From a virus (lineage: Duplodnaviria > Caudoviricetes), in IMG/VR virus record IMGVR_UViG_3300027983_002388: a stretch of DNA of 64,000 nt; one strand, 5' to 3'. The notes below the pieces were generated by a model that saw only the letters and a list, made by a program, of their open reading frames with translations, had not been told where the DNA came from and made no database searches. Both the position numbers and the translations under genes were made by a program. Positions 2,753 to 64,000 of this stretch are shown here, in pieces. How positions within the stretch are numbered: the first letter of the stretch is position 1; every line of letters starts with the position of its first letter.

Positions 2753-3721
2753 TTACAAATCGCCTATTCTGCTTTGGACAGGGAATCCTGCTTGTCCCGG
2801 CTCAGGACGAACAGCCTGAGTTAAGTTTTCAGTGTCAACTGGAGTGAACAAGTTTTCGCCATTGCCAGTGCTTTGATATTCAGTCCAACCATCGTTGTAC
2901 TTCGTATCAGGTGAACTGCCAGTCATGCTCTTAACACTGTTCCACCATTTTTCGTCATCAGTAGCTTCTTTTTGCATTTTCTTCTTGGATGACTTCTTGG
3001 AGTTCTTCTTTGAGAACATTGGGCCAGCATCGCCCATGCCACCACCGACATCGCCGCCCTTGCCACCGAGCTTGATCTTAGACTTCAGGTCTTCACCTTC
3101 ATCGTCCCCTTCATCATCGCCCATATCTTCGTCGCTGTCGCCTTCTTCGTCCTCGACGCCCATATCCATATCTTGGTCATCTTCTTCAGCGTCTTCTTCA
3201 TCGTCGCTGTCGTCGTTATCAGACCACATTTTCTTCTTGGACTTCATCATCTTTTTCTTGGACTTCTTTTTAGAGAAGAGAACTGAGTTCAAGTCTTTCT
3301 TGCCCTCGTCGTCTCCTTCGTCGTCGCCCTCAGCGTCAATGTCATCGCCTTCTTCATCATCCATGTCTTCGTCGCCCATATCGGCACCACACTTGGACTT
3401 AGACTTCTTCTTGGACTTAGCACCACACATATTGCTGAACTTAGGCTTTTCGTCACCGTCATCAGCATCTACATCAACGTCCACATCTGGATCGTCTTTG
3501 TCGGACGAAGGCTCGACCATTTCGCCGTCGCCTGTTTCGTCATCATCATCGCCAAACATTTTCTTTTTGGCTTTCTTCTTTGCCATTTTCTTGGATTCTT
3601 CAAGGTCCATGCCGAAACCGGATGGAGCTTGAATTCCGAGGTTTGATGGGTTGGAAATACCAAGATTGAAACTCGGCAATACAGACTCATTCAGCGTCTT
3701 CCACTGTTTGTACGTTAGCAT
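2753..3721 (-). CDS. Acidic/Lys-block low-complexity protein with capsid-targeting-like N-terminus
   Basis: Starts MLTYKQWKTLNES; D/E tracts alternate with SKKKSKKKM blocks; SD GAGGA upstream. Confidence 0.75.
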   Translation of the reverse strand: MLTYKQWKTLNESVLPSFNLGISNPSNLGIQAPSGFGMDLEESKKMAKKKAKKKMFGDDDDETGDGEMVEPSSDKDDPDVDVDVDADDGDEKPKFSNMCGAKSKKKSKSKCGADMGDEDMDDEEGDDIDAEGDDEGDDEGKKDLNSVLFSKKKSKKKMMKSKKKMWSDNDDSDDEEDAEEDDQDMDMGVEDEEGDSDEDMGDDEGDDEGEDLKSKIKLGGKGGDVGGGMGDAGPMFSKKNSKKSSKKKMQKEATDDEKWWNSVKSMTGSSPDTKYNDGWTEYQSTGNGENLFTPVDTENLTQAVRPEPGQAGFPVQSRIGDL

Positions 3722-48426: not shown

Positions 48427-48729
48427 ATGCAAACAGTAGGTGATGCAACAAAATCCATCATGAGTTCCCCGCATTGCAAGGCAGTTATTCCTTGTCCAGT
48501 AGTATGTCTACAGGTCTTCAAAACAACGGAGTGCGATTCTCGGTCGCTTGAAGAACTCGTCCTGAAGCGAAACGAAGTTCAAAAACTGTTGCAAGATAAC
48601 AACAAACTTAAAAGAAAAGTTCACGCTGCCCAAGAATTCTTGGACAGACTTCAAAATAGTCTGCCCAAGTATTCTTGGACAGACTTCAAAATAGTCTGCC
48701 CAAGTATTCTTGGACAGACTTCAAAATAG
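48427..48729 (+). CDS. N-terminal part of a gene interrupted by the 35-bp array
   Basis: Stops at TAG inside repeat copy 3; same frame as the 48772 ORF. Confidence 0.5.
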   Translation: MQTVGDATKSIMSSPHCKAVIPCPVVCLQVFKTTECDSRSLEELVLKRNEVQKLLQDNNKLKRKVHAAQEFLDRLQNSLPKYSWTDFKIVCPSILGQTSK

Positions 48730-48764
48730 TCTGCCCAAGTATTCTTGGACAGACTTCAAAATAG
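48626..48764 (+). repeat. Four head-to-tail 35-bp repeats, each a hairpin
   Basis: ctgcccaagtattcttggacagacttcaaaatagt; copy 1 has one substitution, copy 4 lacks the last base. Confidence 0.95.
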
Positions 48765-48771
48765 GTTTACT

Positions 48772-49278
48772 ATGTCGTCGAAACCAGCACTAATCGGACA
48801 AGTGGCGAGCCAAATGATGAAAAGCGGTCGTCCAGGACGGCTTATTGCTACAGATAAACAGAAAGAAAACTTTCAGTTGCGACACAAAAAGCATATTGCT
48901 TGGGCGATTGACAGCCTTCCTCGAAGTAGTACTGCTGTCCCTGCCGTTGTTGTCAAGTGCCTTATTAAGTACGACAACAATAGGGTGGTGGAATTTTGCA
49001 AGGCTTTACGAAGTGGGCTATTTCAAGGGCAAGACGATCCTGCGCTTCAACTGTGGAAGTTTTTGCAAAAACACCGTGGACATGATACCGTTTCTGTGTA
49101 CCAACGGGCGGTCGGTGCTGCAAAGGCTTATATGGAAGGTAGAACACTCAGTTCTCTCAGGCCGTTGAAAGAAGATGTATTTGCCTGGGACGAAGGATGG
49201 ACGGTCCCGGACGATCTTCTTGGCAACTGGACCCCGGATAATCTTCCGAAAGCAGATTCGGATCGACCAATCTCTTGA
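48772..49278 (+). CDS. Paralog of the C-terminal half of the ParB-like protein at 40778
   Basis: IAW..LP, DDPA..LW, EDVFAWDEGW match IAW..LP, GDPA..LY, EDIFQWQEGW. Confidence 0.65.
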   Translation: MSSKPALIGQVASQMMKSGRPGRLIATDKQKENFQLRHKKHIAWAIDSLPRSSTAVPAVVVKCLIKYDNNRVVEFCKALRSGLFQGQDDPALQLWKFLQKHRGHDTVSVYQRAVGAAKAYMEGRTLSSLRPLKEDVFAWDEGWTVPDDLLGNWTPDNLPKADSDRPIS

Positions 49279-49385: not shown

Positions 49386-51038
49386 TTACTTAGGCTTAAC
49401 CAGCGTATATCGCACAACTCGTACTTGTCCAAGTTTGATAATCGGCTGAATCATAGTTTCGCCGACCTGAAGTGAACCTTTGGTGCGAATAAAATCAGCC
49501 ATCCGGTCTTTGACCAACCGCATATCTTCACCAGGACAGATCATTTTGAACATATCCCTCAGCGTAAATACATAACCATCATCATTTAGATCAGCCCATT
49601 TTGTGATAGAATCCAAAATTTCTGTTCCAATCGTTCGACCTGCAATAGATTGGGCCGAATTCCTCGCCGCCTTAATGAAATTAAGGGCTGAAATTGGAAA
49701 TTGTTCTTCATTGACCGAATGGCATCGCTCAAGTTCTTCTTCTTTAAGATATGCCGAGAGCATTCTCTCCACTCGCTTATAAAGCAGAGCCACAGCATCA
49801 GCACTTGTTGGAGCGCTTGTCATCGTTTCCTTGAGGTATCTTCGCAAAGAACGCAGGGACGTGGTTCCTGGCTGTCTCGAAATGGTCTGCCTCTCGACCT
49901 TTTCACCATCGGTCAGAAGATAATCATAGGCATATTCCAACTTTTCTTTGCTGATGCCATAAACGTATGCCCTAAGAAACACGGCCTTGACAATGCCCAT
50001 TCCAACTCTGCGTTTTTGTCCATCCGTGTAACGAGACAACAGGTCATTGAGCCAAGTCAACGGTTCTTGGAAATGGTCAATCATCTTCCTAAGAGTCTTG
50101 AAGCTGAATTGAGTATTCTCTTGCTTTCCTCTGCTATAAGCGACCCTTATTACAGTTGCATTTTTGTTGTTGTACAATGATTCATTAGGATTGTTGCCAG
50201 CCATTGTTTCTGCGTCGTCCATAGTTCGACCGGCTCCGGTATCAATTACCGGCACTTCTTCGTCGGAAATACGACGACGAGTCATAACTCGAATCGACTT
50301 GCCAGATAATAGGCAAGCCAAAGAGCGATGACAACCATTTCTGATGCCGTCATGATTGAACAGGAACATTGAATCACCGATGTAGTAATTTTTTTGTTCA
50401 ATGTCTTGAATAAGGCCAAACACTTTGCCTTCTCGCACTTTGCGATTCGTGGCATTCATCACGATCAACCAAGCGATTTCCGGCGTAATTGTCTCTTCAG
50501 AGTAATCACGAGGATCGCTTTCGCTAATCCTTTTGTATTCAGCCCAATCCTTTTCTGTGGGGGTCAGCTTTGGAAAGGACATCCTAATTGATTTGGGAAT
50601 CCAATTAGGAATATTGAAGTTAAATCCTGCGGACGACGACAGTAAATCAAGCTGAACCTTTGGTTCGCTCATTTTTAGTTCCTTGAAAATAACACTCGAA
50701 CAAAAACCTGAGTCGGTAAGACATTCAGGTAACTCCACATCAATTAGGCGATGGTACTCAATTCCAAATTTTCGATCAATCCAATTTTGGCGCATTTCGA
50801 CAATCAGAGAAATTAGCTCTTGGTCCAAGTAAAACCATTCTTTATGGCTGTTGATGTAATGAAAATATGTATGAAGGTAATCTTCATCGGACAATGTTCC
50901 CGGATAAATAGCCAACAAAACCTGCTTTTCATCGGGCGACATGCCGCTTAACGTAAAAATACGATCAGGCAAACTATTGCTATGACCGATTTTAACCTTT
51001 TTAAGCTGTGGCGAATAAAGAAAATAAACATATCCCAT
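49386..51038 (-). CDS. T5orf172/GIY-YIG-like domain fused to ParB/Srx-like domain
   Basis: GYVYFL..VKIGHS..DRI..EDYLH..EWF; NGCHRSLA..IDTGAGRT. Confidence 0.7.
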   Translation of the reverse strand: MGYVYFLYSPQLKKVKIGHSNSLPDRIFTLSGMSPDEKQVLLAIYPGTLSDEDYLHTYFHYINSHKEWFYLDQELISLIVEMRQNWIDRKFGIEYHRLIDVELPECLTDSGFCSSVIFKELKMSEPKVQLDLLSSSAGFNFNIPNWIPKSIRMSFPKLTPTEKDWAEYKRISESDPRDYSEETITPEIAWLIVMNATNRKVREGKVFGLIQDIEQKNYYIGDSMFLFNHDGIRNGCHRSLACLLSGKSIRVMTRRRISDEEVPVIDTGAGRTMDDAETMAGNNPNESLYNNKNATVIRVAYSRGKQENTQFSFKTLRKMIDHFQEPLTWLNDLLSRYTDGQKRRVGMGIVKAVFLRAYVYGISKEKLEYAYDYLLTDGEKVERQTISRQPGTTSLRSLRRYLKETMTSAPTSADAVALLYKRVERMLSAYLKEEELERCHSVNEEQFPISALNFIKAARNSAQSIAGRTIGTEILDSITKWADLNDDGYVFTLRDMFKMICPGEDMRLVKDRMADFIRTKGSLQVGETMIQPIIKLGQVRVVRYTLVKPK

Positions 51039-61995: not shown

Positions 61996-62005
61996 TAAAG
62001 CAGAT

Positions 62006-62323
62006 TTATTGATTTTGCATATCGGGCTTATCGGGCTTTTCCTGTCCGTCTCCACTGAGAACTCTTTCCAAAACGTCCCAGACGTTGTATGCTTTGAGCT
62101 TCTGAGGAGCGGTGCCACCAGCCGGTGCGCCAGGCATCCCTCCCATCGGTGGAGCGCCCATGCCCATTCCACCACCCATCGGTGGCATTCCACCCATTGG
62201 GGGAGCGCCGCCAGCAGGCAGTAATGCCCCAGGACCACTGATTCCACCAGCCCCGCCCGGTGGAGGCGGTGGTGGTGCAGCTTCGTTCAGTTTGAATTCG
62301 AGAAATTTCTTGAAGGTATTCAT
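62006..62323 (-). CDS. Pro/Gly/Met-rich protein with capsid-targeting-like N-terminus
   Basis: MNTFKKFLEFKLNE-AAPPPPPP. Confidence 0.7.
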   Translation of the reverse strand: MNTFKKFLEFKLNEAAPPPPPPGGAGGISGPGALLPAGGAPPMGGMPPMGGGMGMGAPPMGGMPGAPAGGTAPQKLKAYNVWDVLERVLSGDGQEKPDKPDMQNQ

Positions 62324-62463
62324 CACCTTATGTAGTGACGAAAATCGGAAATTTCCCAAAAGGATCGAACCTGAATCGTTTTTGACTCTCTAAGGTATCT
62401 GAAGCCAAGTCGCTGGAAGTCTCGGAACCGACAAGTGCGTTTTCAACTTTGTCGAGAAGTAAC

Positions 62464-62492
62464 TTTACAAGTGACAAAAGCCGTGGTATGAT
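62464..62492 (+). promoter_or_regulatory. Early sigma70-type promoter
   Basis: TTTACA-N17 (ending CGTGG)-TATGAT, with no long ORF downstream. Confidence 0.75.
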
Positions 62493-62498
62493 ACCAAC

Positions 62499-62816
62499 GT
62501 CCTGATCGGACAACGCTTCTTGTGAGTCTGGGCGTGTGGGGCTTGCCTCATTATCAGACGAGGGTGGGAGTCAACCTAATGACCGGGTTTTAATGTTTGC
62601 ACCAAAGCATAAGCAAGCGTCGGCTTCTATGGGTTGTCTGTGCCGTAATCAGACCACCCGGCTTCTATGGGTTGTCTGTGCCGTAATCAGACCACCCGGC
62701 TTCTATGGGTTGTCTGTGCCGTAATCAGACCACCCGGCTTCTATGGGTTGTCTGTGCCTCAATCAGACCACCCGCCTGCGAGTTGAATAAAATTTCAGAT
62801 TCCGTCTTGAAATTTT
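62499..62816 (+). ncRNA. Putative early structured non-coding RNA
   Basis: Promoter upstream; 12-bp closing stem 62513-62524 with 62608-62620; four pseudoknot-capable repeats; weak hairpin 62789-62816. Confidence 0.5.
62621..62772 (+). repeat. Four head-to-tail 38-bp repeats
   Basis: cggcttctatgggttgtctgtgccgtaatcagaccacc x3 plus a fourth copy with two substitutions. Confidence 0.95.
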
Positions 62817-62835
62817 GTTTCGAGACGACTACTAT
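62807..62835 (+). promoter_or_regulatory. Sigma70-type promoter for the leader/tRNA operon
   Basis: TTGAAA-N17-TACTAT. Confidence 0.55.
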
Positions 62836-62883
62836 AACAGACACAAGCGAACAAAACGTCCGCACAATCAATTGGAGTTCATC

Positions 62884-62964
62884 GTGAACACTTTATCCCT
62901 CAGTCTATCGCTCTCTTATTCCTTGCTATCATTTAGCAACGGAGAAGGCTGCGTCCTGACTTAA
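62884..62964 (+). CDS. 26-aa Leu/Ser-rich attenuator leader peptide MNTLSLSLSLSYSLLSFSNGEGCVLT
   Basis: SD GGAG 6 nt before GTG; codons 4-18 are 6 Leu, 7 Ser, 1 Tyr, 1 Phe. Confidence 0.7.
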   Translation: MNTLSLSLSLSYSLLSFSNGEGCVLT

Positions 62965-63037
62965 AGGGACAATTGTGGGGAAGAATAAACCCCCGGCAGC
63001 TTTCTCCAGAAATGGAAAAGCTGCCGGGGGTTTTTTT
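62915..63037 (+). promoter_or_regulatory. Transcription attenuator (protector, antiterminator, terminator)
   Basis: 1:2 = 62915-62927 with 62935-62948; 2:3 = 62941-62952 with 62996-63007; 3:4 = 62990-63030 stem, GAAA loop, T7. Confidence 0.72.
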
Positions 63038-63042
63038 AGTTT

Positions 63043-63132
63043 GGGAGTAAGGCGACTGCTGGTTGTGTCGCACCTGCCTGTAAAGCAGGGCCTACAAGGT
63101 AAACATCGCAGGTTCAATTCCTGCTGCTCCCA
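63043..63132 (+). tRNA. tRNA-Tyr (GUA), long variable arm, CCA not encoded
   Basis: GGGAGTA/TGCTCCC acceptor; CCTGC-CTGTAAA-GCAGG; GCAGG-TTCAATT-CCTGC. Confidence 0.92.
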
Positions 63133-63204
63133 CTGTGTACGTCAGATTTATTGTTGCGTCCTCACTCTTGTAGTGCGGAGGCAACTAATGAAAGAATAAC
63201 AAAC

Positions 63205-63276
63205 GGATCGGTAGCTGAGATGGAGTATCGCTGGCCTGAAAAGCCGGAGACGAGGATTCGAGCGACTCCCGATCCA
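63205..63276 (+). tRNA. tRNA-Phe (GAA), atypical or degenerate
   Basis: GGATCGG/CCGATCC acceptor; CTGGC-CTGAAAA-GCCGG; T stem GAGGA/GACTC has two mismatches; D stem has one. Confidence 0.7.
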
Positions 63277-63288
63277 CTGAAAGGAACA

Positions 63289-63849
63289 ATGATGGAACCG
63301 ATTTATTTGCCATCTGCTGGCAACGATATGAGCAGAGTGGTTAACTCTATTTTCGATGAAACGAAGGGTCTTGAATGGCTGACCGAGAGGTCTGCCCGGA
63401 AAGAATACTTCATGTCCACGAAAGACAGAGAGTATAGCTACGGGAACAGACATCAAGGCGACGTAATGTACAGAAGCAAGCCATTCAGTTTTTTAGTGGG
63501 ACAGTTTATGGAGTACATAAACGAAACACAGAAATCTGAATTCAATGTTTGTTTTCTGAACCGCTACGAAAACGAACAACAGCACCTTGGATGGCACGCT
63601 GATGATTTTCCGGGAATGAGAGCCGATCAGTCAATCGCCGTGTTGTCGTTGGGAGCAGAACGGGAAATATGGTGGAAGGAAAAATCCTTCAAAGGAATTA
63701 TTCCACCAGAAAATAAACAACTGTTGGAACACGGCAGCATATGGATTATGCCTGTTGGATTTCAAGATGTTTATCTTCACAAAATTCCAAAACATGGAAA
63801 GCCTTGTGGAGAAAGGATCAGTTTGACATTCAGAAGTTTTGTTGATTGA
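63289..63849 (+). CDS. alkB: AlkB-family 2OG-Fe(II) dioxygenase
   Basis: LNRY..GWHADD, VLSLGAER, HGS..M, HKIPK, RISLTFR; SD AAGGA before ATG 63289. Confidence 0.88.
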   Translation: MMEPIYLPSAGNDMSRVVNSIFDETKGLEWLTERSARKEYFMSTKDREYSYGNRHQGDVMYRSKPFSFLVGQFMEYINETQKSEFNVCFLNRYENEQQHLGWHADDFPGMRADQSIAVLSLGAEREIWWKEKSFKGIIPPENKQLLEHGSIWIMPVGFQDVYLHKIPKHGKPCGERISLTFRSFVD

Positions 63850-63946
63850 CGGTAGAAGTCTGTATGTTGTCCACCGGCTTGCCGAGTTCAACGGGACTCT
63901 GAGCTAATGACTCAGACGAAAGATTGATGCTCCGATCAACAAAAAT

Positions 63947-64000
63947 GGCACGGTGATGCAATTTGGCAGACATCTCACGCTTAGAACGTGGGTTCTGTGG
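63947..64000 (+). tRNA. tRNA-Leu (UAG), truncated by the window end
   Basis: GGCACGG-TG-ATGC D arm; TCACG-CTTAGAA-CGTGG. Confidence 0.75.

Follow-up and report, generated by a model that had tools for sequence, protein, structure and literature searches.

In bacteria and phages, tRNA genes are usually regarded as controlled at the level of the promoter and not through the sensing of decoding. Such sensing is familiar from the amino-acid operon attenuators of enterobacteria (the trpL, hisL, leuL, thrL, ilv and pheL leaders), in which the control codons specify one or two amino acids and the controlled genes encode biosynthetic or charging enzymes. In E. coli, the pheST attenuator (pheM leader) uses Phe codons only and controls a cellular gene for a synthetase. 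T-box riboswitches, which control tRNA-charging genes, bind uncharged tRNA directly and do without a translated ORF. Phage-borne tRNAs that replace lost host tRNAs are known as a counter-defence, also against PrrC, and are expressed from strong constitutive promoters with no sensor described. Published cases include a T5 tRNA-Tyr that counters retron-Eco7 PtuAB (PMC11555353) and a phage tRNA-Lys that counters PARIS (PMC11464382), and a theory of leader-peptide transcription attenuators is available (PMC1183508).

Here we describe a locus in a 64,000-nucleotide stretch of DNA from a Caudoviricetes virus (IMG/VR record IMGVR_UViG_3300027983_002388; hereafter the window) that is likely, and in our judgement with good confidence, to be a ribosome-mediated (leader-peptide) transcription attenuator gating a phage tRNA operon. 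An earlier note on this DNA had read it as the attenuator layout, and that reading is supported computationally by the anatomy of the locus and its conservation, by the alternative pairings and by the match between codons and anticodons. As in the amino-acid operon attenuators, a promoter-proximal short ORF carries control codons, 1:2, 2:3 and 3:4 pairings exclude one another, a terminator precedes the controlled genes, and the stop codon is sited where a ribosome completing the peptide would block the antiterminator. Unlike in those systems, the cargo consists of tRNA genes, the unit is phage-borne, and the leader spans four amino acids with nearly all of their synonymous codons. With pheST it would share a leader peptide that governs a component of the translation apparatus by the level of charged tRNA, and it differs from it in the tRNA cargo, the four amino acids' codons and the phage setting. 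The features of the leader region (62807-63037) and its neighbours are as follows.

62807..62835, + strand: sigma-70-type promoter (TTGAAA, 17-nt spacer, TACTAT; promoter scan)
62863..62868, + strand: 5' strand of the outer helix P0, CACAAU, directly 5' of the Shine-Dalgarno sequence; partner 62972-62977 (fold)
62874..62877, + strand: Shine-Dalgarno sequence GGAG, 6 nt 5' of the GTG start at 62884
62884..62964, + strand: leader ORF of 26 codons plus stop; translation MNTLSLSLSLSYSLLSFSNGEGCVLT, then stop
62893..62937, + strand: control codons 4-18, 15 Leu/Ser/Tyr/Phe codons without interruption
62896..62928, + strand: segment 1, the 5' arm of the rod (P1 5' strand 62896-62905, P2 5' strand 62914-62928; fold)
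62934..62969, + strand: segment 2, the 3' arm of the rod, containing the antiterminator strand 62941-62952 and the stop codon 62962-62964 (fold)
62976..62980, + strand: GGGG(G) run, partner of CCCCC 62990-62994 in the antiterminator conformer
62987..63008, + strand: segment 3, the terminator 5' arm (fold)
63013..63037, + strand: segment 4, the terminator 3' arm with the U7 tract (63031-63037; fold, hairpin -38 kcal/mol)
63043..63133, + strand: tRNA-Tyr(GTA), first gene 3' of the terminator, 5 nt beyond the U tract
63205..63276, + strand: tRNA-Phe(GAA)-like gene with a mispaired T arm (Rfam tRNA model, 36.5 bits)
63289-63849: 2OG-Fe(II) oxygenase gene (the window ends at 64000)

The promoter, the GGAG and the 26-codon ORF that had been proposed are all present in the sequence, and a codon count bears out the proposed codon set (all six Ser codons, five of the six Leu codons, TAT and TTT). 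Including a CTG at codon 25, this leader holds cognate codons for all 11 anticodons of the tRNA cluster in the nearest relative. The tRNA-Tyr gene had been said to follow the U tract without a promoter of its own; the gap is 5 nt, and our sigma-70-type promoter scan finds no promoter-like site between the terminator and tRNA-Tyr. A tRNA-Phe gene, also claimed, stands in so far as a GAA gene passes the Rfam tRNA model, with the reservation that its T arm is mispaired and ARAGORN makes no call at 63205-63276. The tRNA-Leu said to come next is absent from the window, where the oxygenase gene follows.

Folding of the window confirmed the proposed segment 1:2 hairpin, the 12-bp alternative between segments 2 and 3, and the terminator. 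In the minimum-free-energy fold, 62914-62928 pairs with 62934-62948, and the helix continues outward with 62896-62905 paired to 62958-62969. The terminator stem counts 18 bp, interrupted by one bulged C; it is capped by a GAAA loop and followed by the U7 run. In the alternative conformer, GGAGAAGGCUGC (62941-62952) complements GCAGCUUUCUCC (62996-63007) over 12 bp including one G-U. With ORF nucleotides 1-45 masked and the terminator 3' arm absent, the 3' arm of the rod pairs with the terminator 5' arm, and segment 3 gains -25.8 kcal/mol from upstream pairing (z = -4.3). In the window, then, the 1:2, 2:3 and 3:4 pairings are mutually exclusive, and 2:3 is favoured only when segment 1 is held. 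Since the finished terminator hairpin (-38 kcal/mol) is far stabler than the antiterminator, the switch must be kinetic, as in the trp operon.

Relatives were obtained by anchoring on the neighbouring SbcD gene; the 2OG oxygenase gene, used in the same way, yielded none. The leader unit recurs, adjoining SbcD (43-93% identical), in 21 distinct lineages of related huge phages, a family of freshwater, estuary and sediment habitats. The earlier note had called for such a search upstream of related phages' tRNA clusters, and the ORF, Shine-Dalgarno motif, codon run and terminator are present there. All 21 lineages have a leader ORF (21-29 codons) with a Leu/Ser/Tyr/Phe run of 11-16 codons, and in each of these units a terminator (-18 to -41 kcal/mol) follows, its U-run starting 52-71 nt past the leader stop; the terminator carries compensatory changes among relatives. 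A promoter scoring at least 9/12 lies within 130 nt 5' of the leader in 19/21 lineages, and a Shine-Dalgarno-like motif stands 5-10 nt before the start in about 19/21 leaders (manual reading of the 18 nt before the start codon). The leader is present at every tRNA cluster found in either locus set; in the metagenome set, about 70 SbcD loci lack a leader, and none of them has such a tRNA cluster.

Megablast of 62400-63300 against deposited phages gave no match, a sensitive DNA search of the region returned tRNA matches only, and the exact terminator sequence is absent from IMG/VR. A 15-mer motif search gave 40 loci and no new leader, those that passed our leader scan being duplicates of known contigs. 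One metatranscriptome contig was found, covering the element upstream of the leader and not the leader itself. The T-box model RF00230 had no match with E <= 1 in 62000-64000, and neither in the window nor in 11 related loci did a T-box or any other cis-regulatory Rfam family reach its gathering score. The His_leader model (RF00514) scored 22 bits, its cut-off being 49 (E ~0.9), with no other leader family listed; in sequence the unit is unrelated to the amino-acid operon leaders. The unit resembles a T-box in being an antiterminator/terminator switch that reads tRNA status; unlike in a T-box, the conserved Shine-Dalgarno motif, start codon and frame indicate that the ribosome is the reader.

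These comparisons leave a chance or compositional artefact, in which a pyrimidine-rich spacer happens to be open in one frame beside an ordinary terminator, with a very small probability. The run is rich in C and U, and a longer open frame from 62815 illustrates how easily open frames are found here. The comparative data contradict such an origin: start codon, Shine-Dalgarno motif, frame length and stop position are kept even where the flanking SbcD is only 43-54% identical, Ser is spelled with both UCN and AGY codons, and in the related loci scanned, leaders that pass the scan with a terminator of -17 kcal/mol or lower occur only before these tRNA clusters.

The leader codons mirror the genes behind them. 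Across 16 loci, 164/167 downstream tRNAs are for Leu, Ser, Tyr or Phe, the others being two GCA tRNAs and one without assignment. Among the distinct downstream anticodons, 133/135 have a cognate codon in their leader, compared to 58 +/- 6 at random (z = 12.9), and the cargo can read 54% of leader codons versus 18% at random. The only cluster with GCA-anticodon tRNAs is preceded by the only leader with UGC codons (two) inside its run, and the only locus where no tRNA-Leu was detected (98-kb contig) has a leader with one Leu codon, compared to 4-7 in the others (10 leaders tabulated). Synonymous codons are also unusually varied: summed over leaders, there are 50 distinct Ser codons and 39 distinct Leu codons, versus 39.5 +/- 2.5 and 31.4 +/- 2.2 expected from background usage. 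The choice of AGU and UUA is partly accounted for by pairing with the stop-codon region. Codon proportions for Leu, Ser, Tyr and Phe do not significantly track tRNA gene numbers (Spearman 0.03-0.44), and the leader of the 595-kb phage LR756511.1 retains a Phe codon while its tRNA-Phe genes are located elsewhere. The earlier note had asked whether tRNA-Ser genes lie further downstream, and the nearest relatives carry tRNA-Ser genes with GGA, GCT, CGA and TGA anticodons 3' of the leader, along with five tRNA-Leu species. Its description of Leu, Ser and Tyr as the long-variable-arm tRNA class holds for these three and also fits the odd GCA tRNAs of one relative; Phe falls outside it. As the control codons are mixed over four amino acids with no single-residue run, the response to loss of one tRNA species should be weaker.

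We also considered whether the unit is a stand-alone small gene, encoding a Leu/Ser-rich peptide of 26 residues or else a small RNA, the terminator acting as an insulator and the tRNAs being transcribed by constitutive leak-through or from unseen promoters. Promoter, Shine-Dalgarno sequence, ORF and a very strong terminator do make up a complete unit, with a predicted short transcript of about 195 nt from the promoter to the U tract; huge phages may have their own polymerases and promoters, outside the reach of a sigma-70 scan; and in some loci 300-1300 nt, including small ORFs, separate the terminator from the first tRNA. In the window and most loci, on the other side, the first tRNA lies within about 5-50 nt of the U tract. 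The peptide drifts outside the Leu/Ser/Tyr/Phe run, and the RNA pairing of the C-terminal halves is kept though their residues differ. A stand-alone gene would also leave the codon-anticodon match, the co-occurrence of UGC codons with GCA tRNAs and the excess codon variety without a reason, and other units in the same genomes encode peptides that differ greatly from this one and likewise reflect their own cargo. We regard this explanation as improbable.

These other units extend the attenuator reading beyond the window's family. A 436-kb relative has three leader units, each matched to its own tRNA cluster. In LR756511.1, the Leu/Ser/Tyr tRNAs stand behind a leader of the window's family; a strict scan found no leader at its main tRNA cluster, and a laxer scan found a second, Leu-free 'checklist' leader of 35 codons from an ATG, placed within that cluster before most of the other tRNAs. 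Similar units occur in the cultured Caulobacter phage CcrBL10. The units in G007, LR756511.1 and CcrBL10 consist of a short ORF of cargo codons, then a terminator, then tRNAs; compared with them, the window's unit is a separate sequence family, adjacent to SbcD and devoted to Leu, Ser, Tyr and mostly Phe.

The evidence for the switch itself was assessed across the 21 leaders with per-sequence folds, shuffles, own-versus-foreign partner tests and counts of named structures. These took the place of RNAalifold, because MAFFT misaligned the rods and the program then found no structure beyond the terminator or the P2 hairpin. The rod is specific against shuffled 3' arms (mean z -2.7, Fisher 3e-16, combined p-values being inflated because the lineages share ancestry). 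A single-duplex measure of the antiterminator (significant in 6/21 leaders) was dropped as too crude and replaced by the energy gained by pairing the terminator 5' arm. Before the 3' arm exists, segment 3 gains on average -13.1 kcal/mol from upstream pairing in the 'stalled' state, compared to -5.9 kcal/mol with a ribosome at the stop codon (Wilcoxon 5e-6 versus stalled) and the same value with no ribosome (1e-6). By these energies, sequestration of segment 3 is state-dependent in 19-21/21 leaders. Against shuffles the gain has a mean z of -1.8, with p <= 0.05 in 12/21 leaders, and 11/21 leaders rank their own upstream zone in the top 3 of 21 as a partner for their own terminator arm; about 8-9/21 lineages show no advantage of the antiterminator over shuffled or foreign partners. 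In the window clade, the antiterminator is also the best ribosome-free fold as long as the 3' arm has yet to be transcribed, although the gain there is far smaller.

Covarying pairings, which the earlier note had proposed looking for, were found in both parts of the switch. The 1:2 rod is kept, with P1, P2 and the terminator jointly 79% paired versus 37-45% for slid controls. In the window clade, the antiterminator is 94% paired (slid controls 41-65%), with three pairs changed on both sides in an unfitted MAFFT alignment; in a distant clade, it is 79% paired (slid controls 34-49%), again with both-sided pair changes (unfitted MAFFT). Helix P0 is kept in relatives, where CACAAUUG/CAAUUGUG is replaced by CACAAG/CUUGUG, and helix 3 (GGGG(G)/CCCCC) is paired at 93% in 6 relatives.

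This evidence bears on whether decoding might be sensed with an output other than intrinsic termination, the hairpin serving as a processing or stability element (access of RNase E or RNase P) or the output passing through Rho. The codon match supports sensing alone and says nothing about the output, the antiterminator has no statistical support in several lineages, and the 5' end of the tRNA is so close to the hairpin, at 5 nt, that RNase P must act beside it. Against this, in each of the 21 units a G+C-rich hairpin runs straight into a tract of U, the hallmark of intrinsic terminators, nearly all leaders sequester the terminator 5' arm in a state-dependent way, and the 2:3 pairing covaries in two separate clades. 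We consider such an output unlikely, if by a hair less so than the stand-alone gene.

For the attenuator that we favour, the following mechanism is proposed. Host RNA polymerase would initiate at 62807-62835 and transcribe the 26-codon leader, the first two thirds of which (the Leu/Ser/Tyr/Phe codons) would form the 5' arm of a long hairpin, with the last codons and the stop in its 3' arm. Without translation of the leader, or with ribosomes reaching its stop unhindered, the 3' arm would be engaged by the 5' arm or masked by the ribosome; with the 3' arm thus occupied, the 18-bp/U7 terminator would fold and transcription would stop 5 nt before tRNA-Tyr. In a shortage of charged tRNA for Leu, Ser, Tyr or Phe, a ribosome would stall on a control codon and hold the 5' arm. 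The freed 62941-62952, aided by GGGG at 62976-62980, would then pair with the terminator 5' arm, and polymerase would enter the tRNA genes. The tRNAs produced would read the leader's own codons, which would make the unit a negative-feedback supply sensor. The parts, their conservation, the alternative pairings with their covariation and the codon-anticodon match are observed; that stalling leads to read-through, and what depletes the tRNAs in nature, we infer.

Judged from the sequence, the tRNAs are most likely made only when ribosomes lack them. Like the counter-defence tRNAs that replace lost host tRNAs, the cluster places a tRNA-Tyr first behind its leader; unlike those, with their strong constitutive promoters, its expression appears conditional. 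The trigger may be cleavage of host tRNAs by a defence system, and plain supply-and-demand feedback fits equally well. In the 436-kb and 595-kb phages, the Leu/Ser/Tyr tRNAs (in some lineages with Phe) are kept strictly apart from the others, which suggests a shared threat or bottleneck. A more speculative proposal, to which we give perhaps one chance in a few, is that huge phages split their tRNA complement into separately sensed regulons, each with a leader that lists its codons. The window's unit might then be a dedicated sensor of class II (long-variable-arm) tRNAs, whose loss through a host tRNA nuclease or phage-induced destruction of host tRNAs would call up a full replacement set, including short-arm tRNA-Leu that could evade a nuclease directed at the long arm.

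Leader-peptide attenuation is an established mechanism, and its application to tRNA genes seems unpublished: the earlier note knew of no attenuator controlling a phage tRNA operon, and our literature search likewise found no relevant attenuator or leader peptide before tRNA genes. If the reading is true, it would provide direct feedback from the speed of ribosomes on given codons to synthesis of the matching tRNAs, and would extend attenuation to a new class of cargo. Short and modular, such units could act as natural reporters of how plentiful specific charged tRNAs are. Phage tRNA clusters would be made on demand, a testable logic that bears on why phages carry tRNAs, whether for codon compensation or for counter-defence.

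The unit in the window, all of it on the + strand, consists of the following features:
62807-62835, + strand: promoter-like site TTGAAA-17-TACTAT (sequence scan)
62874-62877, + strand: Shine-Dalgarno GGAG
62884-62964, + strand: leader ORF of 26 codons with a GTG start
63031-63037, + strand: U7 of the terminator, which follows an 18-bp hairpin with one bulge and a GAAA loop
63043-63133, + strand: tRNA-Tyr (ARAGORN and Rfam)

Each of these elements had been proposed in an earlier note and was confirmed, and its codon claim was borne out by a codon count: codons 4-18 are restricted to Leu, Ser, Tyr and Phe, and the leader uses all six Ser codons and five Leu codons (if CTG at codon 25 is included). 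In the best fold of the unit (-81.8 kcal/mol, z = -8.7), the arm carrying the control codons pairs with the arm of the last codons and stop, forming a rod, and the terminator forms as well. The proposed tRNA-Phe stood in part: the tRNA-Phe(GAA)-like gene at 63205-63276 passes the Rfam tRNA model (36.5 bits) and has good acceptor and anticodon arms, but its T arm is mispaired and ARAGORN makes no call. The tRNA-Leu placed after it is absent from the window, where a 2OG-Fe(II) oxygenase gene (PF13532, AlkB-like; 63289-63849) comes next, inside the tRNA array. IMG/VR yielded no relatives of this gene, and the phage's nearest relatives do not carry it here.

Genes for a tail sheath, SbcCD and ribonucleotide reductase place the window in a large tailed phage. 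Its DNA occurs in freshwater and estuary metagenomes, and among named relatives the uncultured phage LR756511.1 (595 kb) is closest. An ORF-poor stretch (62360-63290) separates leftward genes (a P/G-rich ORF, DUF4326, SbcD, SbcC) from the rightward tRNA genes. Within it, the interval 62464-62800 holds another promoter-like site (TTTACA-17-TATGAT, with TG), followed by a conserved element that lacks ORFs and contains 4.1 copies of a 38-nt unit (62621-62774); relatives keep the element, but with a single unit. The sole RNA-library contig found, a 264-nt freshwater metatranscriptome contig from a one-unit relative, spans this element upstream of the leader, not the leader, and the element is possibly a separate small RNA.

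Searches of deposited phages with the DNA of the window locus gave tRNA matches alone, so the neighbouring SbcD protein was used as an anchor to fetch relatives' loci from IMG/VR and JGI metagenomes. These were scanned, in combination with ARAGORN, for a short ORF that contains a Leu/Ser/Tyr/Phe run and has a terminator behind it. The leader that the earlier note suggested looking for before the tRNA clusters of related phages was present in 21 distinct lineages, whose SbcD proteins are between 93% and about 43% identical to that of the window. In all 21 units, the leader is 21-29 codons long with 11-16 consecutive Leu/Ser/Tyr/Phe codons, the terminator hairpin is -18 to -41 kcal/mol, and the U-run begins 52-71 nt past the stop. 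A sigma-70-type promoter lies within 130 nt of the leader in 19/21 lineages, and about 19/21 leaders have a Shine-Dalgarno-like motif, judged by reading the 18 nt that precede the start codon. Beyond the run, the peptides diverge freely; the leaders of the window and its nearest relative differ by synonymous changes, by exchanges among the four amino acids, or by changes that the hairpin compensates (UUGCUA/UAGCAA to UCGCUA/UAGCGA). One locus (L057) also has a CAT-anticodon tRNA (3449-3519, minus strand) that is not part of the gated unit and lies directly 5' of the leader's promoter.

The leader was present at every SbcD locus with a tRNA cluster, and no cluster was found at the leaderless SbcD loci (about 70, metagenome set). 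Leu, Ser, Tyr and Phe account for 164/167 downstream tRNAs at the 16 loci with readable clusters. In the nearest relatives, the set comprises Tyr(GTA), Leu(CAG, GAG, TAG, TAA, CAA), Phe(GAA) and Ser(GGA, GCT, CGA, TGA), the last answering whether tRNA-Ser genes follow the leader. Contigs of two relatives (223 kb and 262 kb) hold no other tRNAs, save one distant Ile. LR756511.1 and a 436-kb contig (G007, 85% complete) have ~60 tRNAs each, with Leu, Ser and Tyr set apart behind the leader and other amino acids in a distant cluster; tRNA-Phe joins one group or the other depending on the phage. At two loci, tRNA-Leu occurs behind one leader in two builds, one of 83-88 nt that has a long variable arm and one of 75-76 nt that lacks it: TAG and TAA each in both in G001 (L140, 70-86.5 kb), and 76-nt TAA, TAG, GAG and CAA in G007 (L222, 9-19 kb).

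The match extends to codons. For 133/135 distinct downstream anticodons, the leader in front of them contains at least one cognate codon, compared to 58 +/- 6 for leaders sampled at random from the codon usage of each phage (z = 12.9). The cargo can read 54% of leader codons vs 18% at random, and codon variety exceeds the codon-usage prediction. Two lineages, as natural "experiments", fit this codon-matching reading. One (G004) has two GCA-anticodon tRNAs, and its leader alone has UGC codons inside the run; the other, without detectable tRNA-Leu on a 98-kb contig, has a leader with one Leu and ten Ser codons. Otherwise, the share of each of the four amino acids in the leader does not track tRNA gene numbers. 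The GCA tRNAs (L225, 37580-37960, minus strand) are unusually long (80-83 nt, with long variable regions) and flank a tRNA-Tyr, to which one of them is 70% identical; they resemble class-II bodies redirected to UGY codons.

Concerning the switch, complementarity between the two arms of the same rod is specific (mean z = -2.7 vs shuffled 3' arms), and the rod's outer helix, P1, covaries widely and contains the stop codon in 17/21 leaders. We measured the antiterminator as the energy that the terminator's 5' arm gains by upstream pairing before its 3' partner exists. The mean gain was -13.1 kcal/mol with a stalled ribosome (ORF nt 1-45 masked), -5.9 with a ribosome at the stop and -5.9 with none (Wilcoxon 5e-6 and 1e-6 for stalled vs the other two); the window's leader gave -25.8, -7.1 and -10.2. 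The stalled-state gain was significant vs shuffled upstream zones in 12/21 leaders (p at or below 0.05), and the own zone ranked in the top three vs foreign zones in 11/21. As the lineages share kinship, pooled p-values overstate support. In unfitted alignments, pairing of the antiterminator reaches 94% in the window clade (slid controls 41-65%) and 79% in a distant clade including LR756511.1 (slid controls 34-49%); for the terminator-state helices it is 79% (slid controls 37-45%). Three pairs of the 12-bp antiterminator helix are altered on both sides in the window clade. A ribosome stalled at codons 4 to about 15 would leave 62941-62952 free, while one at the stop would cover half of it, a geometry that fits classical attenuation. 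Since the finished terminator is far more stable than the antiterminator, the choice between them must be kinetic.

Similar units precede other tRNA clusters. G007 has two more, each peptide mirroring its own cargo: L223 (about 165.3-165.5 kb), rich in Ile, Gln, Arg, His, Lys, Cys and Asn, with exactly those tRNAs behind, and L224 (184.85-185.07 kb), rich in Thr, Ala, Val, Glu, Pro, Gly, Asp and Met, likewise. In the main cluster at L224, ARAGORN also calls a 71-nt TCA tRNA that may read UGA, together with Phe(AAA) (191389 and 195520). Within the main cluster of LR756511.1, a second leader (L137, about 277.7 kb, minus strand; 35 codons from ATG) has zero Leu, lists most non-class-II amino acids and leads through a -26 kcal/mol terminator into the cluster. 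The cultured Caulobacter phage CcrBL10 (L228) has similar short ORF and terminator units before tRNA groups, one mirroring Pro/Thr/Lys/Leu/His/Ala cargo (48599-48840, annotated as a hypothetical protein) and one Val/Ile/Gln/Arg (about 50560-50660).

Rfam cis-regulatory families gave no match at gathering score to the window locus or related loci, and full-text literature searches turned up no account of leader peptides or attenuators before tRNA genes. The proposed mechanism is of a known type, leader-peptide attenuation; the novel aspects are the tRNA cargo, a "checklist" leader covering several amino acids, and the occurrence in a phage. The tRNA depletion that the unit would sense could arise from demand alone or from a host nuclease, as in the published cases of tRNA-Tyr and tRNA-Lys loss (PMC11555353, PMC11464382).
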